DNA of 64,000 nt from an uncultured Gammaproteobacteria bacterium (GTDB taxonomy: Bacteria > Patescibacteriota > Microgenomatia > CAZETR01 > Amesbacteraceae), in NCBI GenBank assembly GCA_964356225.1, contig CAYHGA010000001.1:29573-93572 (forward strand), given 5' to 3'. A program made the translations under genes and the position numbers. This document shows positions 3,413-60,690 of the stretch, piece by piece; positions within the stretch are counted from its first letter, which is position 1; every line of letters starts with the position of its first letter. Under the pieces are notes generated by a model. That model had not been told where the DNA came from. It did no database searches and saw only the letters and a program-made list of their open reading frames with translations.

Positions 3413-4420
3413 TCAGCGGGTCAGATATTTGTCAATATTCAAATTGTGTTCCTCTATTGTGGCAGCGAAATGAGTGGTGCCGTCGGGGGCGTGCAGGTAA
3501 AACCAATAAGGTGTGTTTTGGGGATGGCGGGCGGCTTCAATTGAAGCTAAGCCGGGGTTGGCGATGGGAGTAGGCGGCAGGCCGGTATGGATGTAAGTAT
3601 TATAAAGAGAGGGATAGCGGGTATCGGTGACGGGGGACCAGTCGCCATAAGCATATTGAACAGTGGCGTCTATTTGAAGAGGCCAACCAGCTTTGAGGCG
3701 TTTGAGAAGAATTCCGGCTACGATGGGACGATCGACGGCTGTTTTGGTCTCCCGTTCGACTAAGGAAGCCAAGATGAGAGTGCTGGTATCAATGGGGCCA
3801 ATTTTACGATTAAAGGTGGTGGTCATGGTGTTTACGATATCCGCAGGAGCGGCATAGGTAGGAATGAGGTAGGTATCAGGAAAAAGACGGCCTTCGAGGG
3901 TGGCGGTGAGAGATAAAAAATTGGCGGTCTCAAAATTTTCTAAGCTGGAAGCCAGGCGGGCGGCAATTTGTTCCCGGCGCCAGCCTTCAGGAAAAGTCAC
4001 CCAGATATCCCGGGGGCCGGATGTTAAAGAGGTGAGAAGATTTTTGAGATCGGTGGTGGGGGAAAGAAGGTAGGTGCCGGGTTTGATTTTTTTGTCCAAA
4101 CCGGAAAACACAAAATATATTTTGGCTACCTGGGGAGAGCGGATAAATTTTTGTTCAAATAGGGCTTGAGAGATGGCCGAAGCTGATTGATTGGAAGCAA
4201 TGATAAACGGGCGGGTTTGGTCAGAAGCGGGATTTAGAGGAGAAAGCTGGCGGGTCCACCAGACAAAGCCCAAAAGCGATGTTAAAGCGAGAAGGACGAA
4301 CAAACTGGCCAGGAGTTTCACCACCCTAGACCTCCTCGAACAAGGCCCGACGGTATTTGCCAGTTTCTGTTTCTTTGATAAAAATGCGGCCGCATTTTTT
4401 ACACACGATTTTGGTGCCAC
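3413..4420 (-). CDS. mltG: Endolytic murein transglycosylase MltG/YceG family
   Basis: YceG-like blocks are present: FPEGWR, LVERE, YNTY..GLPPTPI.NPG. The N-terminal TM is LLASLFVLLALTSLLGFVWW. The true start is probably an internal GTG near 4324, just after the upstream zinc-ribbon gene stop. Confidence 0.8.
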   Translation of the reverse strand: MAPKSCVKNAAAFLSKKQKLANTVGPCSRRSRVVKLLASLFVLLALTSLLGFVWWTRQLSPLNPASDQTRPFIIASNQSASAISQALFEQKFIRSPQVAKIYFVFSGLDKKIKPGTYLLSPTTDLKNLLTSLTSGPRDIWVTFPEGWRREQIAARLASSLENFETANFLSLTATLEGRLFPDTYLIPTYAAPADIVNTMTTTFNRKIGPIDTSTLILASLVERETKTAVDRPIVAGILLKRLKAGWPLQIDATVQYAYGDWSPVTDTRYPSLYNTYIHTGLPPTPIANPGLASIEAARHPQNTPYWFYLHAPDGTTHFAATIEEHNLNIDKYLTR

Positions 4421-4562
4421 TGGTGTGCTTTACGGACTTGCCGAGAACCAGATCTGTGCCGCAGCCTACACAACGGCCCTGGGAGAGAAGCCAAGCTTGG
4501 ACCGGAGCAATGACGTTTTTAAACATCAAGGTGACTTTAACTGTTTTACAGTTTTGAGTCAA
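4326..4562 (-). CDS. Small zinc-ribbon protein (CxxC-17-CxxC)
   Basis: 66–78 aa ORF between ruvX and mltG with CVGCG...CKKCG. The likely start is the ATG of MFKNV near 4526. This is the position occupied by a small conserved protein in the Firmicute-type alaS–ruvX–mltG neighbourhood. Confidence 0.55.
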   Translation of the reverse strand: MTQNCKTVKVTLMFKNVIAPVQAWLLSQGRCVGCGTDLVLGKSVKHTSGTKIVCKKCGRIFIKETETGKYRRALFEEV

Positions 4563-5025: not shown

Positions 5026-5056
5026 ATACCAGCTTATTAAGCGCTGGAGAAAATAA

Positions 5057-5081
5057 TGTTCCACCTAAGAGGTGGAACATA
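5057..5081. terminator. Perfect 11-bp stem / 3-nt loop hairpin (ATGTTCCACCT-AAG-AGGTGGAACAT)
   Basis: Read directly. It sits immediately 3' of the sortase stop on the minus strand. Confidence 0.5.
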
Positions 5082-5084
5082 CAA

Positions 5085-5735
5085 TTAATTTACCAGTTCG
5101 GCGCGGGCGACGAAGCGGCGGAGGTAGGTGCCCAGGGGGACGCAAGTGATAAGGGTGAGCTCGTTTTTATCATAGCGCTGGGCCAGGACTTCGATTTGGG
5201 AAGGGTCGACTTCGGTAGTGTTGCGCACTACATATTTATAGGTCACGCCGTCGTATTGGATGGTAATGGCATCGCCGACTTTAATTTTGGGGAGAGGATT
5301 AAAAATGGAAATGGGGTCATTAGGTTTGTAGAGAGCGGGTAAAGTAGAATGGCCAAAAATAACGGTGTTGCCATAATCTCCAGGAAGGGCCGTGCCAGAA
5401 AAGTGAATGGCATTTTTTTTCAAATCTGTGCCATTGATTTCTACAGGAACATCGCGAAGACCGAGCTTGGGTATAGATAGTGTGTAGTAGCGGACGCGGC
5501 TGACAGTGGGAGTAGAACTGGAAGCAGGAAACCAGGTGGTGGATTGAGTGTAATCTGGAGTGGTGATTCCTAAAACGCTGGCGACAAAAGGTACCGGAAC
5601 CAGGGCAACAGCAGTGGGATCTAAGAGGCGGGGACGAAGACTGAAACTCAACTGAGAAAGGCCAATGGGAACGATGACGCTGACAAGGAGAACTAAACCC
5701 ACTACTACAAGAGAGAGGGAGAGAAAACGGCGCAT
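5085..5735 (-). CDS. Sortase-family transpeptidase
   Basis: N-terminal signal anchor. Catalytic His (IFGHST), TLITC active-site Cys motif and a downstream Arg. 216 aa. Confidence 0.8.
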   Translation of the reverse strand: MRRFLSLSLVVVGLVLLVSVIVPIGLSQLSFSLRPRLLDPTAVALVPVPFVASVLGITTPDYTQSTTWFPASSSTPTVSRVRYYTLSIPKLGLRDVPVEINGTDLKKNAIHFSGTALPGDYGNTVIFGHSTLPALYKPNDPISIFNPLPKIKVGDAITIQYDGVTYKYVVRNTTEVDPSQIEVLAQRYDKNELTLITCVPLGTYLRRFVARAELVN

Positions 5736-7819
5736 TATTTTAGAGAACGGACGGAGACAGTAATGTGCTTAGACAAGCGGGGCAGTGTGGCTATAAAGGC
5801 GGGAAGCCGGGGAGAAATCAGAATATCAATCTGACCGACAGCGGGTAAGGATTGGAGATATTCTTTAGCCCGAACCGGATATTTGCCAGCTATGTCTTTG
5901 GCGATTTGGGCTGTGTCTACTTGAGGCAGAAGCTGGGCAGTCACCCGGACCTGAAAAGTGACGGTGTTTTTGTCGGCTTTTTTAACAGTCATGCTTTGGG
6001 AGACGTCGGTATCAAAAACATAACCTGTGGGAATTTGCGGATTGACCTGGGCATCAACAATAGACTGGAGGTCTGATTTAGAGACCACCAGTCCGCGGGC
6101 TGTGGCCGAGAGTTTAAGAGAGACGTTGTCTGCCTCTTCCTCTACTTTGTGACTAAAGTTTTCGGACGTTGACTGAAGACTAATTGATTCGGTGATAAGC
6201 TGCTGATCGGCGCTTACTTTTTGGGTGAGCTGATCCCGGCCAAGGTTTTTTAAAGTGTCGGTCAAATCAGAACGGAGCTTGGCGACGTCGTCTTTGGCAA
6301 CTACTTTGGCTTGGCGGCTGGTGCCGCCAGAAATCGCGGCTTCGTTCTTAGCCGCAGTTTCGTTTTCAGCATAAGTGCCGACTTTAAAAACTGTTCCTGC
6401 GGACAGATTAGAGTCCCCTCCAATCTGGACTGCGGTGATCTTGGCGACGGCCTTGGCAGGTTGGAGATTAAAAACATCGCCGCTTCCCGAGGCCACAGTA
6501 ATCGTTTCGTCTAGAACAAACTTCAACCCGGAAGGAGAGGTAAGAATGGTTCCGGCGGGAAGGGAGCGGGCTGTTTTGACATTGTTGGCAACAGAGACGG
6601 CTCCGGTAGCCTTGTCACCCACCAATTTGGATCCGGTGGTGGGGACGGATTTTTCGGCAGATACGGCAGTCTCTAAATTATCTGCAGGTAAATCCTTTCC
6701 ACCTGCTATTAATTCAAACTGGTGCTCCAGATTTTTGGGGGTGACAAACAGGATAACTTCAGCTTTGGGTAAGTACCAGTAAGCTGCGCCCAATCCGCCG
6801 ACGATGGCAAGAAACGCAAACACAGAAACGAGCGCCAGTGCAGAAAAATTGAGGTGAATTTTTGGCAAGTGAATTGCGGGAAATTTAAACTTGGGTTTGG
6901 GTGGGAGAACTACCGGAACAGGTTCCGGTTCTGGGGGAGGCGGAGGTGAAGATTGGACGGCTATATCTAGATCCTGAACAAAGCCTAGATCTGCGGCTGA
7001 ATGGGTAGATTCGGAAGGGACCTCTGTTTCGGCTTCATTAGGATTAATAAGACCGGTGGCCCGGGCGACTTCTGACCCGCCGGAAAGGGCGATGGCCCGG
7101 ATGCTGAAATCAGCGGGTAAAATCTCTACCTTGGGGAAATGAAGGAAAGGTAGATGTTTTTGGGGAGACTGCCAGGGATGAGCTAAAAGCAGTTGCTTGA
7201 TTTCTTCCAGATCTATGCCGGAATCGTACAAAAGCATGCGGGAAGGAAGCATGTCTATATCGGAAAAACGGGAAAGGCCTTCGACTACATCGTCGGCCAA
7301 ATGAGAACTTTTTTGCACCAGATGAGTACCGTCAATTTTGCCTAATCTGACCAGAGTAATTTCCAATGCATGCGGCCAAAACCCAATGAGGATAATGGTG
7401 GGGGGAACGCCTTCGGTGGATTGGAGATATTTGGTAGCAGCTTCGGGAGTAACTACAAATCCTACCGGGACTAAATCCAATTTTTCGGAGAGGGCCTTAA
7501 GGAGATGAAGCTGGGAAGAAGAAATCTTGTCTACCCCAACCCAATCGGCAGGCAGACCAAAGATAACTTTGTGAATTTCTACTTTACCGGAGGGGTCGAG
7601 ATGGGAAGACGCGTCGGAGAGGGCGGCGTCGGCGGCAGTGATAAGAGAGTTTTCGGCTTTATCATCCCATGGCTGGTTGCTACTGACAGCCAAGACCTGG
7701 GGTTTGTCGTTGATGACTGACCAGACAGCGCTTTTGACTAAACCATGATCGATTTCTAAAGCGAAAAAATATTCCCGGGAAGATGAGTTTTCGTTTTTTT
7801 TAAGAAAGGGCAGTTGCAT
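5735..7819 (-). CDS. Membrane protein with an N-terminal actin-like (FtsA/PilM-like) domain, a Pro-rich linker, one TM helix and a large extracytoplasmic C-terminal domain
   Basis: FFALEIDHG and ILIGFWPHALEITLVRLG resemble the phosphate-1 and phosphate-2 motifs of the FtsA/PilM fold. PPPPPEPEPVPVVLPPKPK is followed by the hydrophobic stretch ALALVSVFAFLAIVGGLGAAYWY. Its stop overlaps the sortase start by 1 nt. Confidence 0.4.
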   Translation of the reverse strand: MQLPFLKKNENSSSREYFFALEIDHGLVKSAVWSVINDKPQVLAVSSNQPWDDKAENSLITAADAALSDASSHLDPSGKVEIHKVIFGLPADWVGVDKISSSQLHLLKALSEKLDLVPVGFVVTPEAATKYLQSTEGVPPTIILIGFWPHALEITLVRLGKIDGTHLVQKSSHLADDVVEGLSRFSDIDMLPSRMLLYDSGIDLEEIKQLLLAHPWQSPQKHLPFLHFPKVEILPADFSIRAIALSGGSEVARATGLINPNEAETEVPSESTHSAADLGFVQDLDIAVQSSPPPPPEPEPVPVVLPPKPKFKFPAIHLPKIHLNFSALALVSVFAFLAIVGGLGAAYWYLPKAEVILFVTPKNLEHQFELIAGGKDLPADNLETAVSAEKSVPTTGSKLVGDKATGAVSVANNVKTARSLPAGTILTSPSGLKFVLDETITVASGSGDVFNLQPAKAVAKITAVQIGGDSNLSAGTVFKVGTYAENETAAKNEAAISGGTSRQAKVVAKDDVAKLRSDLTDTLKNLGRDQLTQKVSADQQLITESISLQSTSENFSHKVEEEADNVSLKLSATARGLVVSKSDLQSIVDAQVNPQIPTGYVFDTDVSQSMTVKKADKNTVTFQVRVTAQLLPQVDTAQIAKDIAGKYPVRAKEYLQSLPAVGQIDILISPRLPAFIATLPRLSKHITVSVRSLK

Positions 7820-9551
7820 AGATGCGGCGGACGCCAGCCGATACCGCTTCCTGGCGGGTTATCTTTATCCTACCAATTTCCCCCGTGGATTGCACATGAG
7901 GACCGCCGCACAGCTCTTTGGAAAAGTCGCCGATAGTGTAAACAGAAGTCATTTCCGGGTATTTTTCCGGGAAAAAGGCCATGGCGCCTTCGGCCAAAGC
8001 TTGAGATTTTTGCATTTCTTTTCTTGATACTGGAATATTGGCATCAATTTTTTCGTTTATTAAATCCTGAACTTTTTTAATTTCTTCTTCAGAAAGTTTT
8101 TGGGGATGCAAAAAATCAAACCGCAATCTCTCTGCTGTAATATTGCTGCCCTTTTGGGAAACGTGAGCTCCTAATACTTGACGTAGAGCTGCGTGCAGTA
8201 AATGAGTGGCGGTATGATATTTGGTAGCTATTTCAGAGTGATCTACTAATCCCCCCTTAAACATTCCCGCCGAAGCCGTACGTGAGAGTTCTTGGTGTTT
8301 ATTAAATTCTTTTTGAAATTCTGACCGATTAATTTCATTTCCTTTTTCTTTAGCTAATTCAGCTGTCAATTCCCAGGGGAAACCGAATGTTTGAAATAGA
8401 TCGAAAGCGATTTTGCCATCAACCAATTTTAATTTATTAAACTCTCTTAATCCGCGATCTAAAGTTTTTTCAAATTTACCAATTTCTTCTTGAAGGATAC
8501 GATGTATAAGAGATTTGTGGGTTAATAATTCTGGATAAAGCGGTGACATTAGGGAAACAAATACGTCGACGAGGTCGCTGGCGGCAGAAACATAAGATTT
8601 AATTCCCAATCTGTTTAATTGAAGTGTCGCCCGGCGAATGAGCCGCCGGAGAATATACCCCCGCTCTTTATTTGAGGGAGTTACGCTGTCACAAATTACA
8701 AATGCGGTGGCTCGGATATGATCAGCAATAATACGAAAAGATTTTTCATTTCTTAAATATTGCCGGTTTGAAAGTTGAGAAATTTTTTGAATTGCGGGCT
8801 GCCAAAGTTCGGTCAGATAGTCATCGTCTAGTCCGTTAACCACAGCTAGTGTTCGTTCCAATCCCATACCAGTGTCGACATTGGGTTGGGGAAGTTTTTC
8901 AAATTCACCCTTGGCATTTTTGTTGTATTGCATAAAGACATCGTTCCAAATTTCGGAAAAGCGGCCACAAGAACAGCCAGGTTTGCAACCTGGTCCGTGA
9001 GGTTTTTGGGTTATATCGTAATACATTTCAGTGTCTGGGCCACACGGGCCGGTAGCTCCAACTGGTCCCCACCAATTGTCTTTTTTAGGATAAAAGAAAA
9101 TTCTCTCATCGGGAATTCCCAGAGATTTCCAGATTTCGGCTGACTCGATATCTTTGGGCGCATCTTGATCCCCAGCAAAGCAGGTAATGTAAATTCTGTT
9201 GGGATCCAAATTTAACTCCTTGGTAAGAAACTCGTAGGACCAGGCAATGGCCTCTTTCTTGAAATAGTCTCCCAAAGACCAGTTACCCAACATCTCAAAA
9301 AAGGTGTGGTGAATTGTATCCCCTACCTCATCGATATCATCAGTGCGCAAACATTTTTGGACATCAACAAGTCGTTTTCCGGCTGGGTGGAGTTGGCCTA
9401 AAAGATATGGGACCAGAGGGTGCATGCCAGCGGTGGTAAAAAGAACCGAGGGATCGTTTTCGGGAACCAGGGGGGCGGAGGGAACTTCTACGTGTCCCCG
9501 GTCTTTAAAAAACTTCAGATATTTTTGCCTAATTTCGTTGGCTGTAATCAT
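7800..9551 (-). CDS. alaS: Alanine--tRNA ligase (short form: catalytic, tRNA-binding and editing domains, no C-Ala domain)
   Basis: AlaRS N-terminal blocks (EIRQKYLKFF..GH, LFTTAGM) and the editing-domain HxxxH (HTATHLLHAAL). 583 aa. Confidence 0.88.
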   Translation of the reverse strand: MITANEIRQKYLKFFKDRGHVEVPSAPLVPENDPSVLFTTAGMHPLVPYLLGQLHPAGKRLVDVQKCLRTDDIDEVGDTIHHTFFEMLGNWSLGDYFKKEAIAWSYEFLTKELNLDPNRIYITCFAGDQDAPKDIESAEIWKSLGIPDERIFFYPKKDNWWGPVGATGPCGPDTEMYYDITQKPHGPGCKPGCSCGRFSEIWNDVFMQYNKNAKGEFEKLPQPNVDTGMGLERTLAVVNGLDDDYLTELWQPAIQKISQLSNRQYLRNEKSFRIIADHIRATAFVICDSVTPSNKERGYILRRLIRRATLQLNRLGIKSYVSAASDLVDVFVSLMSPLYPELLTHKSLIHRILQEEIGKFEKTLDRGLREFNKLKLVDGKIAFDLFQTFGFPWELTAELAKEKGNEINRSEFQKEFNKHQELSRTASAGMFKGGLVDHSEIATKYHTATHLLHAALRQVLGAHVSQKGSNITAERLRFDFLHPQKLSEEEIKKVQDLINEKIDANIPVSRKEMQKSQALAEGAMAFFPEKYPEMTSVYTIGDFSKELCGGPHVQSTGEIGRIKITRQEAVSAGVRRIYATALS

Positions 9552-9634: not shown

Positions 9635-10387
9635 TTAACTCAATACGTAATCCAGTTGACTTGCAATTACTTTATTGAAATCCTGCAAAAATTGGCTTAG
9701 AAAAACTTTGGATTCAACGAGAGGAAAGAGATCATTGTAGACAAATTGGGGATCTACTAAACCGACTTTGGTTTTCACCAAGTCCCGTATTTCCGAAAGA
9801 GTCTTTTTTTCTAAAAGGGACATCAATTGTTTGATATTTGGTTTGAGCGAATAGCCGGTTTTGGCAGAAAGCTGAAGTAACCAATATATGTCGAAAACAT
9901 CCCGTCCTTTAAACGGAATTTTTTGAAACTTACCCTTGAAAAAATTTCTATTTAAAAATGCAACTATCTTATTGGCGTAAAGAGTGGGCAGATCATAAGT
10001 ATTGACAAAAAATTGACGGTTATCAGCTGTAATTAAGCTTTTTTGTACATGATATTCTTTAGTAGTAATTTTTGAAAAATCACATCTCACAAAAATATTG
10101 TCAGGAAATTTTACAAACACGGTCGCATTATTACCGGATATCTTAGTTCCGGCTGATAGATATTTACCAAGATCTTTGGCAAACGTCTGAATATCAAATG
10201 ACGTGCTTGCCGGAATATCAAAATCCAAATCTTCAGACAAACGGTTTAAACCATACACTTTACGCAAACAGGTCCCACCGGTAAAGACTAACCTGTTATA
10301 AATCCCATCGTTATATACAAAATTTAGAATCTCGTCTTGCCAACGTTCCTTTATTAGATTCCTCTGATAAGTATTATCGTCGCTCAT
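9635..10387 (-). CDS. AbiEii/AbiGii-family nucleotidyltransferase (type IV TA toxin-like)
   Basis: LVFTGGTCLRKVYGLNRLSEDLDFD is the GGT..R.S.DLD signature of the DUF1814/AbiEii nucleotidyltransferase fold. It overlaps the upstream AbiEi-like gene by 14 nt. Confidence 0.7.
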   Translation of the reverse strand: MSDDNTYQRNLIKERWQDEILNFVYNDGIYNRLVFTGGTCLRKVYGLNRLSEDLDFDIPASTSFDIQTFAKDLGKYLSAGTKISGNNATVFVKFPDNIFVRCDFSKITTKEYHVQKSLITADNRQFFVNTYDLPTLYANKIVAFLNRNFFKGKFQKIPFKGRDVFDIYWLLQLSAKTGYSLKPNIKQLMSLLEKKTLSEIRDLVKTKVGLVDPQFVYNDLFPLVESKVFLSQFLQDFNKVIASQLDYVLS

Positions 10388-11057
10388 ATAAATATTGCAA
10401 TATTTTACTCATTTTTTTTGACTTGGATTTAGTCACAATCTCTTTAAATTCTTGCATGTCTGCGGCTGTAAAAACAGTCCAATTAAACCTTGAACCGAAT
10501 AAAAACTCCCGTGTTAACTGGTCAGTTATAAGCGGAGTCAGATATATAAAATCAAACATCGCCTTGGCTGGACTGGCAATTTTGTAAGAGAAATCTCCAT
10601 AGAATCTTTGTGTATACCCCCAAAACAAACCGGGTTTGATATTCCGGTATCTAAAACTCATAAGTTTGCTCTGAAACGTCCTGGTCTTCTTGGTGGTCAC
10701 ATTTGTGATGGTATATACACTTTCTGCTAATATTCCGTAAAGTGCCAATGCGTACTCTAAAGATATATAACTATCCCGCACTATTTCGCATCCAATATAT
10801 CTTGCCAATTCTTCTGGCGCGGATGATTTTTGATACAAAGTTTCGTTTAGATAAAATCCGGGTTTAATTGTATCCAACAAGCCTGCCTTTATGAGAGACC
10901 TAATGCGATAATCCAAAGTGCGGCGGTTGTTACCTAAAAGCACCTCTAGATTTTGCCTGGTAAAAAATGGGGCCGTGCTTTCTGAGATCAGTTTCTTGTA
11001 GTCTATTTCCATATGCACATAATTATATGTGCAACCGGAAACGGAGTCAAGTAGCAA
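10374..11057 (-). CDS. AbiEi-like antitoxin / transcriptional regulator
   Basis: N-terminal wHTH-like region (TRQNLEVLLGNNRRTLDYRIRSLIKAGLL) followed by a C-terminal domain. The probable true start is the ATG of MEIDYKK near 11012. Confidence 0.6.
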   Translation of the reverse strand: MLLDSVSGCTYNYVHMEIDYKKLISESTAPFFTRQNLEVLLGNNRRTLDYRIRSLIKAGLLDTIKPGFYLNETLYQKSSAPEELARYIGCEIVRDSYISLEYALALYGILAESVYTITNVTTKKTRTFQSKLMSFRYRNIKPGLFWGYTQRFYGDFSYKIASPAKAMFDFIYLTPLITDQLTREFLFGSRFNWTVFTAADMQEFKEIVTKSKSKKMSKILQYLYERR

Positions 11058-11099
11058 TTATGTTGCAAATAGGGGTGAGAAAGTAGATAATAGCAAGTA

Positions 11100-12374
11100 A
11101 TGGATCAACTTATTCCAACTATTACGGCAGAACCTCCTAAAACTAACTGGTTACTATTTTTGTTGGTGGGAATAGTTATTTTGAGTATGGGAATTGGGAT
11201 TGGATTATTTTTGGCAAAAAATATTTATCCGCCTTTGCAAAGTCTGCCCGCTTCAACTCCTTCTCCAACCCCAATCGCCGACCCCACCGCCAACTGGAAA
11301 ACATATACAATTGAAAAATTTGGAATCCAATTTAAACTTCCAAGCAAACTAAGCACTCTCGGGGATCTGGATATAAAAGAATGTGCTGGCGAAAAAGGCA
11401 TGGAATTTAGCGCCACACTACCCTCCAACAAATCATCCGGATATCTCATTTCCGTAGTCTATGCGGGAGGAGGATGTGCCGCACATAATCTATTCAGTAT
11501 GGGTGCAGTATCTTCTGATTATGAAGCCGGAAGAAGCAGGAGATTTACCGATACAAATGGGTACGTTTCCAAAACCGGAACATATTATTGCGTTGGCCCC
11601 GGTGCGGTCAGAAATGATGAAGTTCCGAGCCATCTCGCAAAAGAAATGGTTTCTAAAAATGGAGTTACCGTGTTGAGGATCATGGGTGAAGATGAATCCT
11701 ATGGAACTTGGCCAAAACTCTGTACTCCCGGCAGTGGCAAGATAGGAGCCTTAGTTAATCTTTCCAATAATAAAACGTTCCCGGGAATTGCAATCCAAAT
11801 GGATGTGACAGATCAACTTTCAGAAAACCTATTTGACCAAATCCTCTCCACGTTTAAATTCACGGGTGTCTCGGTCACTCCAACGCCAACTCCAACTCCA
11901 ACCATCACGCCAACCTCTAATCCAAAGACAACATATATCGTTCCCACTAGCTGGAAAAGACTTACCACCCAAAGTGGCCTGAATCTGTGTTTGCCACCCA
12001 AATGGGAAGTTGAGGCCTACGACCACCTTATTTTTAATCGGGATGAGGGATACAAACCGAGCATTACCTATATTACAAACCTTCCTTATTCAGGTGGCTC
12101 ACGGCGTGAAGCGTATTTTGCCTATTGGGTACAGGAATATCCGGATGTAAAGCAATTAGTTTCCGTAGCGGACACCGATATAAACGGAAATTCCGCCCTG
12201 ACTATCTATCCGGCGAACTCTTCTGACCCCAAGACATCCCCCGAGGGGTTAACGGTAGTCTGGTTTTCCGCCGGAAAACTATGGAAAGCGGGCCTGTCTG
12301 GTTGGAATATGACCAACGCCTCGCAAACGTCTTTTCTGAAGGACTTTTACACGATGATTAGCTGTAGCTTCTAA
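11100..12374 (+). CDS. Membrane-anchored secreted protein, paralog A (signal anchor, DPTANWKTYT motif, TP linker)
   Basis: N-terminal TM helix, TPSPTPIADPTANWKTYT, an internal TPTPTPTPTITPT linker and the QILSTFKF motif shared with the 13324..14019 protein. Confidence 0.6.
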   Translation: MDQLIPTITAEPPKTNWLLFLLVGIVILSMGIGIGLFLAKNIYPPLQSLPASTPSPTPIADPTANWKTYTIEKFGIQFKLPSKLSTLGDLDIKECAGEKGMEFSATLPSNKSSGYLISVVYAGGGCAAHNLFSMGAVSSDYEAGRSRRFTDTNGYVSKTGTYYCVGPGAVRNDEVPSHLAKEMVSKNGVTVLRIMGEDESYGTWPKLCTPGSGKIGALVNLSNNKTFPGIAIQMDVTDQLSENLFDQILSTFKFTGVSVTPTPTPTPTITPTSNPKTTYIVPTSWKRLTTQSGLNLCLPPKWEVEAYDHLIFNRDEGYKPSITYITNLPYSGGSRREAYFAYWVQEYPDVKQLVSVADTDINGNSALTIYPANSSDPKTSPEGLTVVWFSAGKLWKAGLSGWNMTNASQTSFLKDFYTMISCSF

Positions 12375-12421
12375 GTAACCGGCACTCACTAATCTGTCGT
12401 AGTTTGGGGTATAATTGAGAT

Positions 12422-12667
12422 ATGAGCTCTACCAGACCATATTTTTTGTGGGATTATGATTTGACCGAGAATGACGTCAGGAGGATTCTGCGTGGGGAAA
12501 ATCAAACAGACAAGATTTGGATTATGTCGAGGATTCTGGAAAGCGCCAAGTTTGAAGATGTTTGGAAATATACAACCTTGTCTGATGTCAGATCGATGAT
12601 GCCGATATTAAAAATCAAAAAACCTATCCGTCAAGCCTGGGAACGGGCCTTAACAATATGGCAGTAA
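12422..12667 (+). CDS. Small protein resembling the C-terminal domain of the AbiEi-like antitoxin (truncated antitoxin?)
   Basis: YFLWDYDLTENDVRRIL...MSRILE aligns by eye with FLFGSRFNWTVFTAADMQEFKEI...MSKILQYL at the C-terminus of the 10374..11057 protein. A TATAAT sits directly upstream, and the ORF overlaps the following NTase gene by 10 nt. Confidence 0.4.
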   Translation: MSSTRPYFLWDYDLTENDVRRILRGENQTDKIWIMSRILESAKFEDVWKYTTLSDVRSMMPILKIKKPIRQAWERALTIWQ

Positions 12668-13320
12668 ATTACGTACTCCAAGACAAATTTTTGAATTTAT
12701 TTTTTTTCGGCCGTTTTGCAGCGGATTTTTATCTGACGGGCGGTACAGCTCTGGTACGATTTTATTTTCAGCACCGCGAAAGTGTAGATTTGGATTTGTT
12801 TAGCCAAAATCAACAGTTGGATTTTTCGGCTGTAAATTTAGAGGTTGAACGTATTGGCCGTGAGTTAAAACTAATAACTATCAAACAAGTGACCACGAAC
12901 ACTTTTTTGCAATTTATATTTGAAAGTACAGAGGGAGATACATTGAAGGTGGATGTAGTTAAGGATATTCCGGTACATTTTGGAGAGTTTAAACAAGAGG
13001 GTAAAGTGAGATTGGACTCATTGGAAAATATAGGTTCAAATAAAATCACAGCTATTTTTGGCCGGACTGATCACAAAGATTTTATTGATTTATATTACAT
13101 TTTAAATAAGACAGATTTTACATTCGAACATTTGGTTTCGCTGGCTAAGCAGAAAGATTTGGGGTTAACCGAATTTTATCTGGCCAATTCGATTGATCAA
13201 ATTGAGCAGACTTCACAAATGCCGGTCTTACTAAAACCACTTGATATAAAGAAATACAACGAATTTTACAAAAAACTTTCCCGGGATTTATTTTTAAAAA
13301 TCAAACCAGAAGATAAATAA
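12658..13320 (+). CDS. AbiEii-family nucleotidyltransferase, second copy
   Basis: FYLTGGTALVRFYFQHRESVDLDLF carries the same GGT..R.S.DLD signature. Confidence 0.7.
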   Translation: MAVNYVLQDKFLNLFFFGRFAADFYLTGGTALVRFYFQHRESVDLDLFSQNQQLDFSAVNLEVERIGRELKLITIKQVTTNTFLQFIFESTEGDTLKVDVVKDIPVHFGEFKQEGKVRLDSLENIGSNKITAIFGRTDHKDFIDLYYILNKTDFTFEHLVSLAKQKDLGLTEFYLANSIDQIEQTSQMPVLLKPLDIKKYNEFYKKLSRDLFLKIKPEDK

Positions 13321-13323
13321 TCT

Positions 13324-14019
13324 ATGGATCAACCTATTCCAACTATTTCTCCGGTCGCCCCATCTCCCAAAACCAACTGGCTATTATTTTTGTTGACAGG
13401 AGTTGTGATTTTATTGGTTGGTATCACTGCCGGGCTTGTGATCGGAAAGTATATTTATGCTCCCAAACCCACCCCAACGGCCGACCCCACCGCCAACTGG
13501 AAAACATATACCAGTAATAAATATGATTATCAATTCAAATATCCCCAAATTCCACCCGAGGCCTCCAGCGCATTTAAATTTTCACTTAACGACAAACTGT
13601 CTGAACTATGGGGACCAGACAATCTAATTTTTAGAATTGAAGTATTTGAAAATATCAACAATCCGCAACTTTGGTGGGAAAATCAAGCTATTGAACCATT
13701 TACTAAACTGGCGGTGAACAACTTTGACTTCACAGAGACAACGCTAAACAGCTATCCAGGATACTCTGCTCAGGTCAAAACAGAATTTCAAGAACCAAAA
13801 AAGGTGTTTAGAACGTATGTGCTTAGCAATAATGATAATGTGTATCTAATTCACTCAGATTATGGTCAGTGGAGTAACCAAATCCTCTCCACGTTTAAGT
13901 TTGTGGAGCAGGCAACGCCGAAGCCGACGTGCAAGCCCAGACCGGCTTGCTTAGATACTTCACCCCGCTGTCTGCTTCCGGAAACATCTGACATGTGTCC
14001 ACCAAATCAGAAGTTATAA
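13324..14019 (+). CDS. Membrane-anchored secreted protein, paralog B
   Basis: The N-terminus (MDQPIPTISPVAPSPKTNWLLFLL...DPTANWKTYT) and the C-terminal NQILSTFKF are near-identical in pattern to the 11100..12374 protein. It starts 4 nt after the NTase stop. Confidence 0.6.
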   Translation: MDQPIPTISPVAPSPKTNWLLFLLTGVVILLVGITAGLVIGKYIYAPKPTPTADPTANWKTYTSNKYDYQFKYPQIPPEASSAFKFSLNDKLSELWGPDNLIFRIEVFENINNPQLWWENQAIEPFTKLAVNNFDFTETTLNSYPGYSAQVKTEFQEPKKVFRTYVLSNNDNVYLIHSDYGQWSNQILSTFKFVEQATPKPTCKPRPACLDTSPRCLLPETSDMCPPNQKL

Positions 14020-14403
14020 CGAATGGGAGTGTGATTTAAGCCAGGATGAGATTTCTTTGACTCCTGGTTTGGAATTGTCGACATAAACCATAAAATCTGC
14101 GGCTTCTTTGCGGTTTGATTTGAGGTGATAACCATTATCCCAGAGAAATTTATGAGTTACGGTCCAAGCTGTGCGTTTGTTGCCGTCGGTAAACGGGTGA
14201 TTTAAGCAAACGGATTGCAGGAGGGCCGCGGCTTTGGCAAAAAGGGTGGGGTAAAGATCTTGACCAGCGTAGGTAGCTTTGGGCCGCTCGAGGGCAGAAT
14301 GGAGGAGAGCAAAATCGCGAACCGCTGCTTTGGTGCCAGCCCTGACAATGATTATTTCATGAATACGATAGGCCTCTTCTATATTAACGATCTGCCAGTT
14401 CAT
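14014..14403 (-). CDS. doc: Doc (death-on-curing) Fic-family toxin
   Basis: HPFTDGNKRTA matches the Doc variant of the Fic motif, HxFx(D/N)GNKR. Confidence 0.8.
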   Translation of the reverse strand: MNWQIVNIEEAYRIHEIIIVRAGTKAAVRDFALLHSALERPKATYAGQDLYPTLFAKAAALLQSVCLNHPFTDGNKRTAWTVTHKFLWDNGYHLKSNRKEAADFMVYVDNSKPGVKEISSWLKSHSHSL

Positions 14404-20330: not shown

Positions 20331-20750
20331 TCATGTTAATGGGTCAACAATTTTAATATCTCTCATAGGGAAATGCCTGGTATTGCAAGTAATGAGGGCT
20401 ATTTTTTTTATCCTGCAAGTCGCAGCGATCAAATAATCTATCAAATTACTATTAACACTTCGGTATCTATGCCAATATTCTCCCGCTAGTTTGGCTATCG
20501 TAAAATCTATGGGGATCTGATTATGCCACTTGAAAAAATGCCGGTTTGATGGTTCTTCTTCGGGAAAAGAATTTTTGTAAATTTCGCTAACGGTTAAAAC
20601 AGAAATAACTACGGACTGGTCATTCACTATTTTTGAAACGGCTTCAATTATCTTTTTATTTCCTCTGATTATCCAAATTGAAACATCTGAATCAAGCAAA
20701 AATCTACTTTTTGCTTTTGGTTTTGGCATAGGGAATATATGAGTAATCAC
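20331..20750 (-). CDS. vapC: PIN-domain toxin VapC
   Basis: LLDSDVSIWIIRG and the downstream acidic residues fit a PIN fold. The ORF overlaps the vapB stop. Confidence 0.7.
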   Translation of the reverse strand: MITHIFPMPKPKAKSRFLLDSDVSIWIIRGNKKIIEAVSKIVNDQSVVISVLTVSEIYKNSFPEEEPSNRHFFKWHNQIPIDFTIAKLAGEYWHRYRSVNSNLIDYLIAATCRIKKIALITCNTRHFPMRDIKIVDPLT

Positions 20751-56030: not shown

Positions 56031-56279
56031 ATGGCGGATATGCCTATAACTAAAGGTGCAATCAGGAAGCTACGGGCGGATAAAGGTAAGGCCCGGGTTA
56101 ATAACGTAATAAAACGGGCGTTTAGGGAATCCGTGTCTAAGATGCGCAAGCATCCGACCGTAAAAAATTTGGTGGAGGTCTACCGGAAACTGGACCGGGC
56201 GGCTAAATCTAAAGTGATTCACAAGAATAAAGCGAATCGGTTGAAATCTAGACTGTCCAAGTTGCTGAAAAAGAAGTAG
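56031..56279 (+). CDS. rpsT: 30S ribosomal protein S20
   Basis: 82-aa S20. Confidence 0.9.
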   Translation: MADMPITKGAIRKLRADKGKARVNNVIKRAFRESVSKMRKHPTVKNLVEVYRKLDRAAKSKVIHKNKANRLKSRLSKLLKKK

Positions 56280-56296
56280 TGTTGTACACTGGAAGA

Positions 56297-58114
56297 ATGC
56301 TACGAAAAGGATTTGTTGGTATCGAGTTGGCAGTAATGGTGGTGATGGTAATGGGGCTGATCGCTGGAACAAAGCAAATTTCAGATCTCACCCAAAAGTT
56401 CCTAATCAAGAACAAAGCGGCTGGACAAGTTACTTGTTCTTCAAATTGCGCATCTGGTTCCAGTGGTGAATATAATTTCTGCTACAACGAATGCGTTCCG
56501 GGGAAAACCGGTTACTCCCGGCCCATTGGTTGTAATTCCAGTGGTTGGGTGAGAGGAAATGATCAAGTTGATTCGGCTTGCGGCTCCGCACCCGCGCCTA
56601 CTCCGGTATCCCCAGGTCCCACTCCGACTGGCGCTCCAACTCCAGGTGATGGACCTTACGGTAAAAATTGGGGGAATACGTGTAACGGTATAAATTATGG
56701 GGGCTGCAGTCCTGGTTACCGTTGCGTAGGCAATCTTTGTAGTGGATATAACTGTTTTAAGCTTGATTCGTCATGTGGGGGAGTACCACCGTCAACTATC
56801 TGTCAACCTGGCCATTGTGATTACGGAGGATCAAACCTAGGCTGGAGAAAGTGCAATGGCAACGGCACGGCTTACGACGGAAATAAATACACAGATAATA
56901 CTTGCTCCACTGTCGCCGGTGGAGGACCTACCCCAACTCCAAAATCCGGTGCGACACCTACGCCAAGACCTACTCCGACTCCACCTTCGACATGTGCTCA
57001 ATATTACAGTCTCGCTGATTGTAATAGTGCTTCATGCTCTTGGTATAACTGTGGGGGCAAGTCTCCGGGCTGTTTCCCGGGTGGGACGTTGATGGCGGTT
57101 GCCTGTCCCACCACCCCAACCCCAACGCCGACCCCAAGACCTACTCCAACCCCGACTCCTGTTGTGGATTGTACCAAGATTCCCTACTCTGACTGTAATA
57201 CTTCACTTAACAATGGAAACTCTCGGTGTGCTTGGTACAACTGTTATGATGGAACAGCTGGCTGTTTTTCTAAAGGTACGCCAGATACTGTTGCTTGTCC
57301 AAACCTCGCTCCAACGCCAACCCCAACGCCAACCCCAAGACCTACTCCCACCCCGACCCCAAAACCCACGCCCACTCCGACTCCAACCCCTAAATCCGAA
57401 CCTAGATATAATTATGATCTCTCTACTTATCGCTGTGTTGAGGCTCAAGATGGATATTATCCTTCTTTCTCCGCTTGTGAACAGAACTATGCTGTACTAA
57501 ATGTGCCATACTGTAAGTCGGATGGGTTTCTGTGTTATGCAGCAAATACCGATGGATCTTGTAAGACTACAATACAATGTTATCCAGGAACTGTTTGCAC
57601 AGGCTCACCAAGATTCGCTAAATGTGCTCTCGCTTCTTCTCCCCCCACTCCCACTCCAACTCCGACGCCTGCTGCTGAGAATAACGGCTGGACTGGTCAA
57701 TACTGTGCTGGAGGGCTCCTTGGATCTCCGAAGAGTATCTGCAAACCCGGTCTGCCTCCTACATGCGAGCCCTGCAATAGTTGCTCCGGAAATTACGGAT
57801 ACGCCGTAGGCGCTGGTTGTTCTCCAATTTCAACCCCAACTCCAACCCCAACTCCAACTCCTACGCCCGTCGCTGGCCAAGGCTGGACTAATCAATACTG
57901 CACAGGAGGGTCTTCGAGAAGTATCTGCACTTTTAGTTTCCCTCCTACATGTTCCCCTTGCAACAGTTGTTCCGGAAATATTGGGTATGCCGTGTGCAAC
58001 GGTTCTTCGCTAATTCCTACGACCGATTCTACTCCCGCGGTTGCTCCTAAGACCCCTCGTCCTTTCTACTGCATAAACTTCTTTGGCTGGAACCCATGTG
58101 GAGTTGTCCAGTAG
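56297..58114 (+). CDS. Type IV pilin-like protein with a large C-terminal region of Cys-rich modules separated by (TP)n linkers
   Basis: Class III signal peptide MLRKG|FVGIELAVMVVMVMGLIAG (cleavage-site Gly, Phe at +1, Glu at +5). The following ~580 aa carry more than 60 Cys in repeated modules (DC..C.WYNC...GCF..GT...VACP twice; GW..QYC.GG......C.....PPTC.PCNSCSGN.GYAV twice) joined by TPTPTP runs. The ORF track's 56279 start is a GTG overlapping the rpsT stop. Confidence 0.6.
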   Translation: MLRKGFVGIELAVMVVMVMGLIAGTKQISDLTQKFLIKNKAAGQVTCSSNCASGSSGEYNFCYNECVPGKTGYSRPIGCNSSGWVRGNDQVDSACGSAPAPTPVSPGPTPTGAPTPGDGPYGKNWGNTCNGINYGGCSPGYRCVGNLCSGYNCFKLDSSCGGVPPSTICQPGHCDYGGSNLGWRKCNGNGTAYDGNKYTDNTCSTVAGGGPTPTPKSGATPTPRPTPTPPSTCAQYYSLADCNSASCSWYNCGGKSPGCFPGGTLMAVACPTTPTPTPTPRPTPTPTPVVDCTKIPYSDCNTSLNNGNSRCAWYNCYDGTAGCFSKGTPDTVACPNLAPTPTPTPTPRPTPTPTPKPTPTPTPTPKSEPRYNYDLSTYRCVEAQDGYYPSFSACEQNYAVLNVPYCKSDGFLCYAANTDGSCKTTIQCYPGTVCTGSPRFAKCALASSPPTPTPTPTPAAENNGWTGQYCAGGLLGSPKSICKPGLPPTCEPCNSCSGNYGYAVGAGCSPISTPTPTPTPTPTPVAGQGWTNQYCTGGSSRSICTFSFPPTCSPCNSCSGNIGYAVCNGSSLIPTTDSTPAVAPKTPRPFYCINFFGWNPCGVVQ

Positions 58115-58159: not shown

Positions 58160-58687
58160 ATGGCTGCCCTGGGTAGTATTAATTTGTTGCCTAAGTCTGA
58201 TTTTGAGGCTTCTTTCTGGGGGAAATTTTTGAAGTGGGGACTGACCACCGGGAGATACTTAGTGATTTTGACGGAGCTAGTAGTAATCGCCGCGTTTTTA
58301 TCCAGATTTAAATTGGATTGGGATTATGCGGCAGTAAGAGACAGAATTAATGGAAAAAGAGCGGTGTTGACGGCGATGGCCGAAACGGAAAGAAGATTTA
58401 GATTGGCCCAGAGCAGGCTGGGAGCAGCCGGAAAAATTATGGGGGGGCAATTAGAAGCGGCGAAGGAAATCGAAAAAGTGACAGCCAAAGTTCCCGCGGG
58501 AGTGGTGTTAACTGATGTGACCGTGTCTGACAAAATGATAACGGTTTCGGGAAGCGCCAGCAGTGCGGATAAATTTGGAATCTTTTTGTCCCGTTTGACG
58601 GCAAGCGGTGACTGGAAAAGCGTAGGGGTGAAAAGTTTATCAGATGACGGACAAGCGGGATTTAAATATTTAATATGGCTCAATTAG
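58160..58687 (+). CDS. PilN-like pilus assembly protein
   Basis: N-terminal INLLP signature, a single TM helix and a periplasmic domain. Confidence 0.6.
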   Translation: MAALGSINLLPKSDFEASFWGKFLKWGLTTGRYLVILTELVVIAAFLSRFKLDWDYAAVRDRINGKRAVLTAMAETERRFRLAQSRLGAAGKIMGGQLEAAKEIEKVTAKVPAGVVLTDVTVSDKMITVSGSASSADKFGIFLSRLTASGDWKSVGVKSLSDDGQAGFKYLIWLN

Positions 58688-59235
58688 ATTACAAAAGCAG
58701 TTTGGCCCAATACCGCAGATATTTGGCGGCGGTGCGAGAGCAACCCTTATTTGCCGCCAGTTTGGGGTTGGTGCTGTCTCTGACGTTAATAATAATTCTG
58801 GTGTTAGCAGCCCTGCGGCCAACTTTAGTGACTATTGCCTCACTGCTAGGAAATATTCAGCAACAAAGCGATGTGGAGAAAAGACTGGACAAAAAAATTG
58901 CAGAGATAACTGCGGCCCAAGCAGAGTATTTGAAAAACGAATCCAGGTTGGGTGTGCTGGATGAAGCATTGCCGGTGGGCCAGAAATATGCGGCCTGGGG
59001 AATGAGATTGGAGACCGCCGCTTCTGAAAGCGGTGTGAAAGTGATGGAATGGTCGCTTCTGGATGGAAAAGATTTCAGTGTTTCTTTAAGCGGAGACGTG
59101 GCGGGATTGAAACGGTTTTTGGCCACTATGGAAAACTTGCGGCGGTTGGTGGAAGTCAAGAGTATACAGTTTGCTAAAGAAAAAGAACTGACGTTAGTTG
59201 TGAAGGGAGTCTTAAAATCATATGAAGAAAAATAA
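58675..59235 (+). CDS. PilO-like pilus assembly protein
   Basis: TM helix plus a coiled-coil and PilO-like periplasmic domain. It overlaps the PilN-like gene. Confidence 0.45.
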   Translation: MAQLDYKSSLAQYRRYLAAVREQPLFAASLGLVLSLTLIIILVLAALRPTLVTIASLLGNIQQQSDVEKRLDKKIAEITAAQAEYLKNESRLGVLDEALPVGQKYAAWGMRLETAASESGVKVMEWSLLDGKDFSVSLSGDVAGLKRFLATMENLRRLVEVKSIQFAKEKELTLVVKGVLKSYEEK

Positions 59236-59422
59236 AACTGACCGGCAAGTTGTGGTAGTGCTGGTTATGACTTTGATTACGCTGGTAGCCTGGGTGGGGT
59301 TTGAAGTTTACCGGACATATACTCTGGTAAACATCCCCCCAGTTTCCGACAAACTGCTGCTGGAGTTGTCTCCCACGCTGGATATTTCCGTGCTGGAAAA
59401 ATTAGAAAGCAGGACACCATGA
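59222..59422 (+). CDS. Small membrane protein in the pilus locus
   Basis: 66 aa with one TM helix, overlapping both neighbouring genes. Confidence 0.35.
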   Translation: MKKNKTDRQVVVVLVMTLITLVAWVGFEVYRTYTLVNIPPVSDKLLLELSPTLDISVLEKLESRTP

Positions 59423-60690
59423 GAAAAAGAGAGCTGACTATTCCTACAATTTTGGGAGTTCTGGCTATAATCGGAGGGCTGATAGGGGGAGTAGTGTTAT
59501 TGAACAAACCATTAAGAGGTTTGGTGGGGGCTAGCCCGGAAGAAACTCCAAAAGAAGTCAAGATTACTAATATTTCCGACACCAGTTTTGTGGTGAGCTG
59601 GGTGACAGACAAATCCACTTCCGGTTATGTCCAATATAACGGAGGATTGGTGGTGTCCGATGACCGGGATCAAGAACGAGGGGAAATCGGAAACTATTTT
59701 ACCCATTTGGTGACTATTAAGGCGCTCAAAGCGGAGACGGGGTACAGTTTTAAAATAGGATCGGGGAAAAGTTTGTATGATAATTCGGGGAAGTTGTATC
59801 AGATAACAACGGCTACCGCAGTAAGCCAGGTTCCGGTAGCGGACGTGGCTTATGGGCAAGTGGTTACAGCCAGCGGTGATCCGGTAGAGGGAGCAATTGT
59901 ATATTTGTCCCTGCCAGGAGCGGTTTCCCAGGCAGCACTAACTAAGTCTTCGGGGTCATGGGTAATTCCAATGGCGGTTGCCAGAAGCGCAGATCTAACT
60001 GGTTATGCGGCTTATGACCGGGAAAAAGAAAAGATCGAAATAACGGTTCAAGCCGGAGCATTGGGAACTTCTGTGGTCAATACTACGACGGGGACGACTA
60101 AGCCGGTGGCAAATATAACTTTGGGGGAAAACAGAAGCGGAGAAACACCGGCACCTACACCGGTAGCGGGATCAAAGTTTTCCCCGGGAGCGCTGGCCAC
60201 TGATACGGGGGAGACTCTGGTGATTTTGACTCCTAAATCCGGGGAAAAAGTTAATTCCCAGAAACCGGAAATTATGGGTAAGGCCCCGGCGGGAAGCAAA
60301 GTGACTATTAAAGTGGAATCTTCCCAATTATTTACCGAGACTTTAACTGCGAGCGAAAATGGGGACTGGACTTATGGAGTTCCGGAAGACTTGGAACCGG
60401 GTGAGCATACGATAACAGTAACTTCGATTATTGATGGGGTAACAAAAACTATTAAGAAAAGTTTTGTGGTGGAAGCGGCGGGAGTTTCCAATGCCCCCGC
60501 CAGAGTGGCCACTCCGTCAGCAACACTAAAACCCACTCCTAAACCGACGCCCACAATTGCTCCAAGGGTGGCTTACCCGTCTACTGAATCCGGGACGCCC
60601 ACGTCCGGTAACTTGACTCCGACTTTAATTTTACTCATACTGGGAGCGGGGCTGGTGTTAGCTGGTGCCACTTCATATAGAAAAATCTAA
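59419..60690 (+). CDS. Membrane-anchored surface protein with FN3-like and Ig-like domains and a C-terminal TM anchor
   Basis: N-terminal signal anchor; KEVKITNISDTSFVVSWVTDKSTSGYVQY is FN3-like; a later Big-like region; C-terminal LTPTLILLILGAGLVLAGATSYRKI. Confidence 0.45.
   Translation: MRKRELTIPTILGVLAIIGGLIGGVVLLNKPLRGLVGASPEETPKEVKITNISDTSFVVSWVTDKSTSGYVQYNGGLVVSDDRDQERGEIGNYFTHLVTIKALKAETGYSFKIGSGKSLYDNSGKLYQITTATAVSQVPVADVAYGQVVTASGDPVEGAIVYLSLPGAVSQAALTKSSGSWVIPMAVARSADLTGYAAYDREKEKIEITVQAGALGTSVVNTTTGTTKPVANITLGENRSGETPAPTPVAGSKFSPGALATDTGETLVILTPKSGEKVNSQKPEIMGKAPAGSKVTIKVESSQLFTETLTASENGDWTYGVPEDLEPGEHTITVTSIIDGVTKTIKKSFVVEAAGVSNAPARVATPSATLKPTPKPTPTIAPRVAYPSTESGTPTSGNLTPTLILLILGAGLVLAGATSYRKI

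Follow-up and report, generated by a model that had tools for sequence, protein, structure and literature searches.

The 64-kb stretch of contig CAYHGA010000001.1 analysed here, referred to below as the window, derives from an uncultured groundwater bacterium of the Microgenomates, which belong to the candidate phyla radiation (CPR). The minus strand encodes a sortase that is directly preceded by a gene for a bitopic membrane protein of 694 residues, termed the partner in what follows. An earlier note, made from the sequence alone, had described this pair as a sortase translationally coupled to an FtsA/PilM-like transmembrane protein. The features of the locus are as follows:

5735..7819, minus strand: partner gene, encoding the 694-residue bitopic membrane protein (open reading frame (ORF) list)
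5085..5735, minus strand: sortase gene, 216 residues (ORF list; PF04203 and TIGR01076)
7800..9551, minus strand: alaS, alanyl-tRNA synthetase, 583 residues (ORF; synteny; tRNA-synt_2c and tRNA_SAD in orthologous loci)
5056..5080, minus strand: terminator-like hairpin with an 11-bp stem and a T-rich tail, 5 nt past the sortase stop (consensus scan)

The partner and sortase genes meet in the sequence TAATG, in which the stop codon TAA of the former and the ATG of the latter have one base in common. The partner gene itself begins 20 nt before alaS ends, such that alaS, partner and sortase form one overlapping gene string. The hairpin is probably the end of this transcription unit; terminator-like sites in the region are no commoner than in shuffled sequence, and the hairpin is therefore weak evidence. 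The alaS product itself is short, with catalytic and editing/SAD domains accommodated in 583 residues compared with a bacterial norm of roughly 870.

Related loci were retrieved by scanning one genome per GTDB species with an automatically picked pattern, the FLHFPKxE motif of the partner, and the best 80 of 140 loci were examined. These derive from Amesbacteria, Shapirobacteria, Gottesmanbacteria, Daviesbacteria and Chisholmbacteria; several of the records carry placeholder titles (“uncultured Gammaproteobacteria”) and show identical synteny. The association extends to these CPR genomes: 76 of the 80 loci have the sortase gene directly after the partner gene. The genes typically follow one another as alaS, partner, sortase, ruvX, a gene for a Zn-ribbon protein of 66-78 residues, yceG/mltG and rpoB. 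Loss of either flank leaves the pair adjacent: alaS is not present within 6 kb upstream in three loci (L059, L062 and L082), and about 13 loci of the Gottesmanbacteria type have no ruvX downstream. The sortase start lies between -4 and +3 nt from the partner stop in 55 of the 76 adjacent pairs, the junctions being of the ATGA type (25 loci), TAATG (10), directly abutting (9) or separated by +1 to +3 nt (11). The translational coupling that the earlier note had read from the single overlap in the window is conserved across the class.

Full-length homologs of the partner number in the hundreds (43-83% identity); where names are given, which is seldom, they are those of Candidatus Amesbacteria or of further Microgenomates. 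When a profile was run against 1.84 billion representative proteins, the matches fell into 11,749 clusters at E≤1e-3 and, at the stricter E≤1e-30, into 3,403 clusters (50% identity); most of the 150 top-scoring clusters are full length (617-822 residues), and a few have N-terminally truncated representatives (526 and 646 residues). No relative of the partner was found among the 2.9 million viral contigs of IMG/VR in a scan that used patterns from the N-terminal domain only. A search of the literature yielded no description of the partner, of its coupling to a sortase, or of the sorting motif or substrate discussed below. A sortase family is near-universal in Microgenomates (PMC6744442), and in the literature on sortases and CPR/Patescibacteria the genome papers name “a sortase” merely in passing.

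The Zn-ribbon gene between ruvX and yceG encodes 78 residues in the window (4326..4562, minus strand), has the pattern CxxC...CxxC and is present in most loci at 46-83% identity. Its overlap with the longest yceG ORF makes it probable that yceG truly starts further downstream.

The identification of the 216-residue product as a sortase is borne out by scores of 88.5 bits against PF04203 (cut-off 26.6) and 63.4 bits against TIGR01076 (cut-off 39.35). The enzyme is organised as follows:

5655..5723, minus strand: signal-anchor, residues 5-27, MRRF followed by a 23-residue hydrophobic stretch
5088..5486, minus strand: catalytic domain, residues 84-216
5349..5351, minus strand: catalytic His129 (FGHS)
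5142..5144, minus strand: catalytic Cys198 (LITC)
5115..5117, minus strand: catalytic Arg207

The N-terminal anchor would place the catalytic domain outside the membrane, and there is no C-terminal transmembrane (TM) helix. Across 75 orthologs the triad is retained almost without exception (His and Arg in 75/75, Cys in 74/75, with one gap). The nearest solved structures are 4d70 and the class C sortase 8t28, and all NCBIfam class models remain below their cut-offs (class C, 63.4 bits against 160; D, 49.5 against 165; E, 46.5 against 160; F, 30 against 166; GN, 30.6 against 158). The sortase represents a new branch of a known family, one that falls in no defined class. It shares with the housekeeping sortases of classes A, E and D the fold family, an anchor at the N-terminus only, the His-Cys-Arg triad, a TLxTC-type motif (here LITC) and, by prediction, substrates that combine a motif, a TM helix and a basic tail; like them it apparently occurs as a single copy, no second sortase being encoded in the window. 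In contrast to these classes, it scores below every class cut-off (the best being class C, 63 bits against 160), its predicted motif has Ser in place of Thr with V, T or I at position 1 as often as L, and it contains an invariant Pro40 and W68-F69-P70. These residues delimit a segment between the anchor and the catalytic domain (residues 40-70; 5526..5618, minus strand) whose position resembles that of the lid in class C sortases, although the motif differs. The view that this is not a pilus sortase, expressed in the earlier note, is a reasonable one given the missing C-terminal helix, the failed class C model and the lack of a YPKN-type motif in the candidate substrate. To our knowledge, translational coupling to a large partner protein has no counterpart among studied sortases.

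No ORF in the window ends in a literal L-P-x-T-G followed by an anchor, and neither strict nor loose LPXTG searches, run over every stop-to-stop segment with a pattern without Thr at position 1, gave anything credible. A motif-free scan for an N-terminal signal combined with a C-terminal TM helix picked out an ORF that forms the end of a pilN-pilO operon:

58160..58687, plus strand: pilN, with INLLP at residues 7-11 (Pfam PilN, 29.4 bits, above cut-off)
58675..59235, plus strand: pilO (Pfam PilO, 21.5 bits, just below the cut-off of 22.0; E 2.8e-4)
59222..59422, plus strand: orf66, an ORF of 66 residues with a TM segment
59419..60690, plus strand: candidate sortase substrate, a secreted Ig-like/fn3 protein of 423 residues (C-terminal TM scan)
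60595..60690, plus strand: tripartite sorting signal of this protein, ...PSTESG-TPTSGN-LTPT-LILLILGAGLVLAGATS-YRKI

The four genes have overlapping stops and starts, with the substrate gene last (58160..60690), and the same operon is found in four related loci (L083-L086); no pilM adjoins pilN-pilO in the window, L083 or L084. The candidate substrate contains the Pfam domains Big_13, fn3/Pur_ac_phosph_N and CarboxypepD_reg. Among its 120 best homologs, taken as orthologs, a [VTIL]P.[ST]G signal followed by a TM helix is kept in 117, and 116 of these have a K/R tail. The counts per position are [V39 T34 I19 L19]-P113-x-[S94 T10]-G117-[N68 Y17 D11], with the TM helix starting a few residues on. 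One ortholog (P0187) scores 20.3 bits against the LPXTG_anchor model TIGR01167 (cut-off 15.9), and the isolated C-terminal tail of another (P0207) lies exactly at the cut-off (15.9 bits). The earlier statement that the 64 kb contain no LPXTG substrate therefore holds for the literal motif and fails for the variant, since the ORF at 59419..60690 carries a sorting signal of the TPTSG type, the only one of its kind in the window. No LPXTG substrate was found immediately outside: scans detected no further sorting signals in the 10 kb past the right edge or in the approximately 4 kb between the left edge and the contig end, where rpoC and one further ORF are located. From its C-terminal signal, we infer that this protein is the cognate cargo of the sortase.

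The genes around the candidate substrate are compatible with wall anchoring. They include murJ, a gene for a PMT glycosyltransferase and, a little beyond the window, a LytR-CpsA-Psr (LCP) gene and two FemAB-family genes; the latter three adjoin PMT in a related locus (L085, 3133..8311, corresponding to about 1.7-6.9 kb past the right edge). FemAB enzymes build peptidoglycan cross-bridges, which in staphylococci provide the sortase nucleophile.

The VPxSG tail was also considered as a PEP-CTERM or VPDSG-CTERM signal for an exosortase; this was rejected as no NCBIfam CTERM model matched whereas LPXTG_anchor did, and no exosortase-like gene is present among the annotated genes of the window. Inspection of the candidate substrate by eye revealed no YPKN-type pilin (Lys) motif. 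Two small ORFs (63 and 38 residues) that follow the sortase in one related locus (L001) were discarded as substrates because they are not conserved in the window. Two other secreted or membrane-associated products are encoded close to the candidate substrate. A PT-rich, Cys-containing protein of 206 residues (61966..62586, plus strand) has an ortholog in L083 (10719..11759), and their common C-terminus consists of L-x-x-A-G, six residues and a TM helix (...LLILGS..MFAL) with no basic tail, which could be a second, unusual signal or a simple membrane anchor. A secreted protein of 611 residues (56279..58114, plus strand) is very rich in Cys, with (PT)n linkers, repeats of the CNSCSGN(Y/I)GYAV type and no Pfam match.

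The partner has the layout predicted in the earlier note, with an N-terminal domain, a Pro-rich linker, one TM helix and an outer domain, all of which are seen in an AlphaFold2 (AF2) model built on 31 homologs (mean predicted local distance difference test score, pLDDT, 82):

7052..7777, minus strand: minimal ASKHA (actin-like) domain, residues about 15-256 (AF2 model)
7124..7147, minus strand: motif F225-L-H-F-P-K-x-E232 (43-sequence alignment)
6851..7051, minus strand: disordered cytoplasmic linker, residues 257-323 (pLDDT below 50)
6980..6985, minus strand: invariant Gly279-Phe280 of the linker (“DLGF”; 43/43 sequences)
6773..6850, minus strand: single TM helix (NFSALALVSVFAFLAIVGGLGAAYWY), residues 324-349 (sequence; AF2 model)
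5738..6772, minus strand: extracytoplasmic domain, residues 350-694, 345 residues (AF2 model)

In the model, the N-terminal domain comprises two successive RNase-H-like lobes of beta-beta-beta-alpha-beta-alpha-beta-alpha order. The motifs FFALEIDHG and ILIGFWPHALEI, which the earlier note had cited in favour of an actin fold, map to strand 1 and the strand 1-2 hairpin of the two lobes and occupy the “phosphate 1” and “phosphate 2” positions of the ASKHA fold. Foldseek searches with the modelled domain consistently returned the ASKHA superfamily and singled out no one family; this consensus establishes the actin fold. PilM is among the best structural matches (Thermus thermophilus PilM, 20% identity), and on the predicted structure “FtsA/PilM-like” is marginally the best description of the core. 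This part of the earlier description stands. The protein is a member of neither family, since subdomain 1C, a hallmark of FtsA and PilM, and the sequence signatures of the families are absent. Neither 1C nor 2B is present, the domain spans only about 240 residues with each lobe reduced to its core, and only about 215 core residues align to targets of 333-370 residues. None of the Pfam families FtsA, SHS2_FTSA, PilM_2, MreB or other ASKHA families was detected in 25 diverse members at E≤5. Comparison with PDB sequences (phmmer, and a profile of the 25 members) likewise gave no ASKHA protein and only spurious matches to the HIV gp41 coiled coil; hhalign against the DnaK encoded in the window returned a probability of 0.05, and NCBIfam had no match to the 694-residue protein.

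An alignment of 43 partner sequences from across the Microgenomates extends to the whole family the degeneracy of the ATP ligands that had been noticed in the single sequence. Residue 22 is occupied by E (16 sequences), K (5), N (5), Q (4), L (4) or others, the hairpin 24-27 and the phosphate-2 hairpin 146-151 vary, and the positions of the adenosine motif are also variable. There is no DxGxG at 146-151 and no conserved Asp or Gly-rich loop at 22-27 or 146-151 in these sequences. Conservation is instead concentrated elsewhere. F225, H227, P229, K230 and E232 are invariant (43/43), L226 and F228 are retained in 42 and 41 sequences respectively, W216 is invariant, and G160 and P192 are also conserved in this domain. 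W216 and the FLHFPKxE motif form the most conserved cytoplasmic patch, a candidate surface for binding another protein. The linker that follows is acidic at first, then reads PPPPPEPEP and ends Lys-rich; within this variable, disordered region the invariant “DLGF” looks like a short linear binding motif, as judged from the alignment. We take the N-terminal domain to be an interaction module that works without nucleotide.

The lack of a signal peptide, together with the Lys-rich run that precedes the helix, suggests that the N-terminus is inside and the C-terminus outside the cell. Modelled alone, the outer domain reaches a pLDDT of 90 and consists of a beta-rich module resembling baseplate wedge proteins (J/gp47/gp6-like), followed by an alpha/beta module. 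This likeness was not part of the earlier note. The match to Baseplate_J (PF04865) on residues 401-500 is borderline (21.5 bits against 21.1) and covers positions 20-110 of the 255 in the profile, and only some homologs of the partner carry a precomputed match to this family. The PHROGs family phrog_6, “baseplate wedge subunit”, is matched with E 3.6e-7, and the fold is common to solved baseplate wedge proteins. Together, the modelled fold and the PHROGs match identify a wedge module of the J/gp47 type in the outer domain. No baseplate, tail or contractile injection system (CIS) genes occur beside the pair in any of the 80 loci, the neighbours being alaS, sortase, ruvX, mltG and rpoB. The C-terminus of the partner (LPAFIATLPRLSK...) was examined as a potential sorting signal and rejected: a TM helix and a basic tail are both lacking, and the only conserved residues are scattered prolines.

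As modelled, the partner is a new combination of domains, visible only by structure prediction. It shares the ASKHA core with FtsA and PilM but lacks their 1C/2B subdomains, conserved ATP-site residues and sequence-family signal, and unlike them it has a genuine TM helix and a 345-residue outer domain. Its layout of actin-like domain, TM helix and periplasmic domain is that of GspL in the type II secretion system, of PilO2Bp (PF06864) in the R64-type pilus and of PilM-PilN fusions. In GspL/EpsL, the cytoplasmic part is actin-like without serving as an ATPase, and a single TM helix leads to a periplasmic domain. In contrast to GspL, PilN and PilO, in which the outer domain is small and ferredoxin-like, that of the partner is baseplate-J-like; it has no Pfam match to the GspL or PilO2 families, and it shares its operon with a sortase gene, not with genes for secretion or pili. 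PilO2Bp and GspL are the subjects of PMC3984277 and PMC3815138, respectively. The wedge fold is found in J of phage P2, gp47 of Mu, gp6 of T4, Pvc11 of the Photorhabdus virulence cassette (PVC) and Afp11. In contrast to these proteins, the module of the partner is exported and membrane-tethered, corresponds to only part of the J profile, and is encoded on the chromosome amid housekeeping genes, unaccompanied by sheath, tube, spike, gp25 or gp7 partners. A precedent for a non-catalytic accessory protein beside a sortase is SipA of Streptococcus pyogenes, described in PMC4049620 as an essential helper of a sortase locus and a degenerate copy of another enzyme family. SipA is signal-peptidase-like, belongs to a pilus island and has no cytoplasmic domain, and thus differs from the partner in fold and context.

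The explanation that we favour, tentatively, is that the locus encodes an active housekeeping-type sortase for signals of the VPxSG type together with a stoichiometric, dedicated and non-enzymatic bitopic scaffold. Co-transcription of the two-gene module with alaS would yield sortase and partner in roughly equal amounts. Since the topology of both proteins follows from the positive-inside rule, the sortase domain and the C-terminal domain of the partner should lie on one side of the membrane, the outer one. The sortase most likely recognises the variant signal [V/T/I/L]-P-x-S-G-[N/Y/D], and is predicted to cleave inside it and to join the cargo to a peptidoglycan precursor; the 423-residue Ig-like protein encoded after pilN-pilO would be a cargo of this kind. 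The partner, for its part, is unlikely to be an enzyme, having an actin fold that lacks nucleotide binding while keeping an invariant surface and the GF peptide of the linker. Like GspL or PilM-PilN proteins, it may serve as a scaffold that spans the membrane and holds or positions the sortase on its outer face. Its wedge-like module might oligomerise, as J proteins do in baseplates, and the invariant cytoplasmic patch and GF peptide could receive positional or regulatory input, linking the sortase to a cytoplasmic partner. The pair is therefore best described as a conserved sortase module with a new membrane partner that is probably non-enzymatic.

Several observations weigh against this explanation. 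Operon partners can be functionally unrelated, the gene string includes alaS, and contact between the two proteins is something that we infer. Four loci (L056, L066, L067 and L078) have a full-length and fully conserved partner with no sortase beside it, indicating that the function of the partner is not strictly tied to adjacency. Because starts close to the upstream stop were preferred when the sortase start codons were assigned, the count of 55 coupled loci among 76 is slightly inflated. The TPTSG tail of the copy in the window does not reach the LPXTG_anchor model, so that its assignment rests on positional homology with its orthologs. Moreover, the cargo gene lies 52 kb from the pair and never adjoins it in 82 loci, in none of which are pilN-pilO-substrate genes found near the pair.

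In a rival account the association is one of co-transcription only: the 694-residue protein would perform an envelope or growth role of its own, to which its fixed place in the ancient alaS-ruvX-mltG neighbourhood points, and the sortase would simply share its transcript. The overlapping string does contain a gene, alaS, that is clearly unrelated in function, four lineages maintain the partner with no neighbouring sortase, and mltG/yceG, of the peptidoglycan strand terminase family, lies two genes downstream in nearly all loci. Set against this are the start/stop overlap of just these two genes in most of the 76 loci, an adjacency that outlasts change of either flank, and the exposure of the main domains of both products on one side of one membrane. 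On balance, we consider that mere co-transcription is somewhat unlikely.

More elaborate assemblies can be envisaged. In one, which we think unlikely, a ring-forming, baseplate-like platform with a nucleotide-free FtsA/PilM-like domain would cooperate with the sortase and with PilN, PilO and orf66 to build an anchored Ig-like surface structure. If true, this would represent a hybrid of parts from a type IV pilus platform, a phage baseplate and a sortase system, with no counterpart in cultured bacteria. In another, the two loci would encode a single appendage machine in which the actin-fold domain stands in as the PilM of the orphan PilN-PilO, alongside orf66, the sortase and the VPxSG protein. 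PilM is one of the best structural matches of the domain, pilN has a PilM-binding INLLP N-terminus with no adjoining pilM in the loci named above, and the pilN-pilO operon ends with the one sortase-type cargo gene that the window contains. In solved PilM:PilN complexes (2ych and 5eou), the PilN peptide occupies a groove that involves subdomain 1C, which is the subdomain that the partner lacks. In addition, the two loci never adjoin in the 82 examined, no pilin Lys motif was seen in the cargo, and a canonical PilM family is general in CPR genomes (PMC6744442) and may have a member elsewhere in this one. A two-locus machine of this kind seems to us quite improbable.

It is very unlikely that the partner is a true orthologue of FtsA or PilM, that is, an ATP-dependent protein of division or of pili that has gained a membrane anchor by fusion: the core fold is shared, but the phosphate-1, phosphate-2 and adenosine positions vary across the family, the alignable region is confined to the core with neither 1C nor 2B, and the Pfam models for FtsA, PilM and MreB fail on all 25 members searched. 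The tie to cell division suggested in the earlier note likewise finds no support, as nothing here links the pair to FtsZ or the divisome and the context of the candidate cargo is one of pilN-pilO and wall genes. That a stranded baseplate J gene from a prophage or CIS could account for the partner is scarcely credible, given that the J-like module is anchored by a TM helix outside the cell and fused to an actin fold, that the gene occupies one housekeeping locus across the whole class with no further phage or CIS genes nearby, and that the N-domain patterns found no relative in IMG/VR.

CPR/Patescibacteria are thought to live attached to other cells, which makes the building of their surface central to their biology; it is almost unstudied, as few of these organisms have been cultured. 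The sortase module with its putative scaffold offers specific predictions in this respect, namely a recognition motif ([VTIL]PxSG), a named cargo family and a very large, conserved partner family. The pairing of a dead actin fold on the cytoplasmic side with a phage-baseplate wedge module on the outer side appears to be unprecedented; it would represent recruitment of a phage structural module into a core cellular locus, and its ASKHA domain is one that structure prediction alone detects.

The remainder of the window is occupied by housekeeping genes, including rpoB, ftsK, the genes for RNase J and PNPase, infB, nusA, dnaJ/dnaK, fusA, tuf, ribosomal protein genes, secY, lepA and murJ, with toxin-antitoxin genes interspersed. 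Defence and toxin-antitoxin genes (two AbiEii, one AbiEi, Fic/DOC and PIN) are located at 9635..14403 and 20331..20750, between the alaS and ftsK blocks, and an AbiEii gene is also present in the related locus L001. On the plus strand, nearly all 2-kb bins have a positive GC skew irrespective of gene orientation, and the cumulative skew rises steadily; a disparity in strand composition is reported for another Microgenomates genome (PMC7143001).

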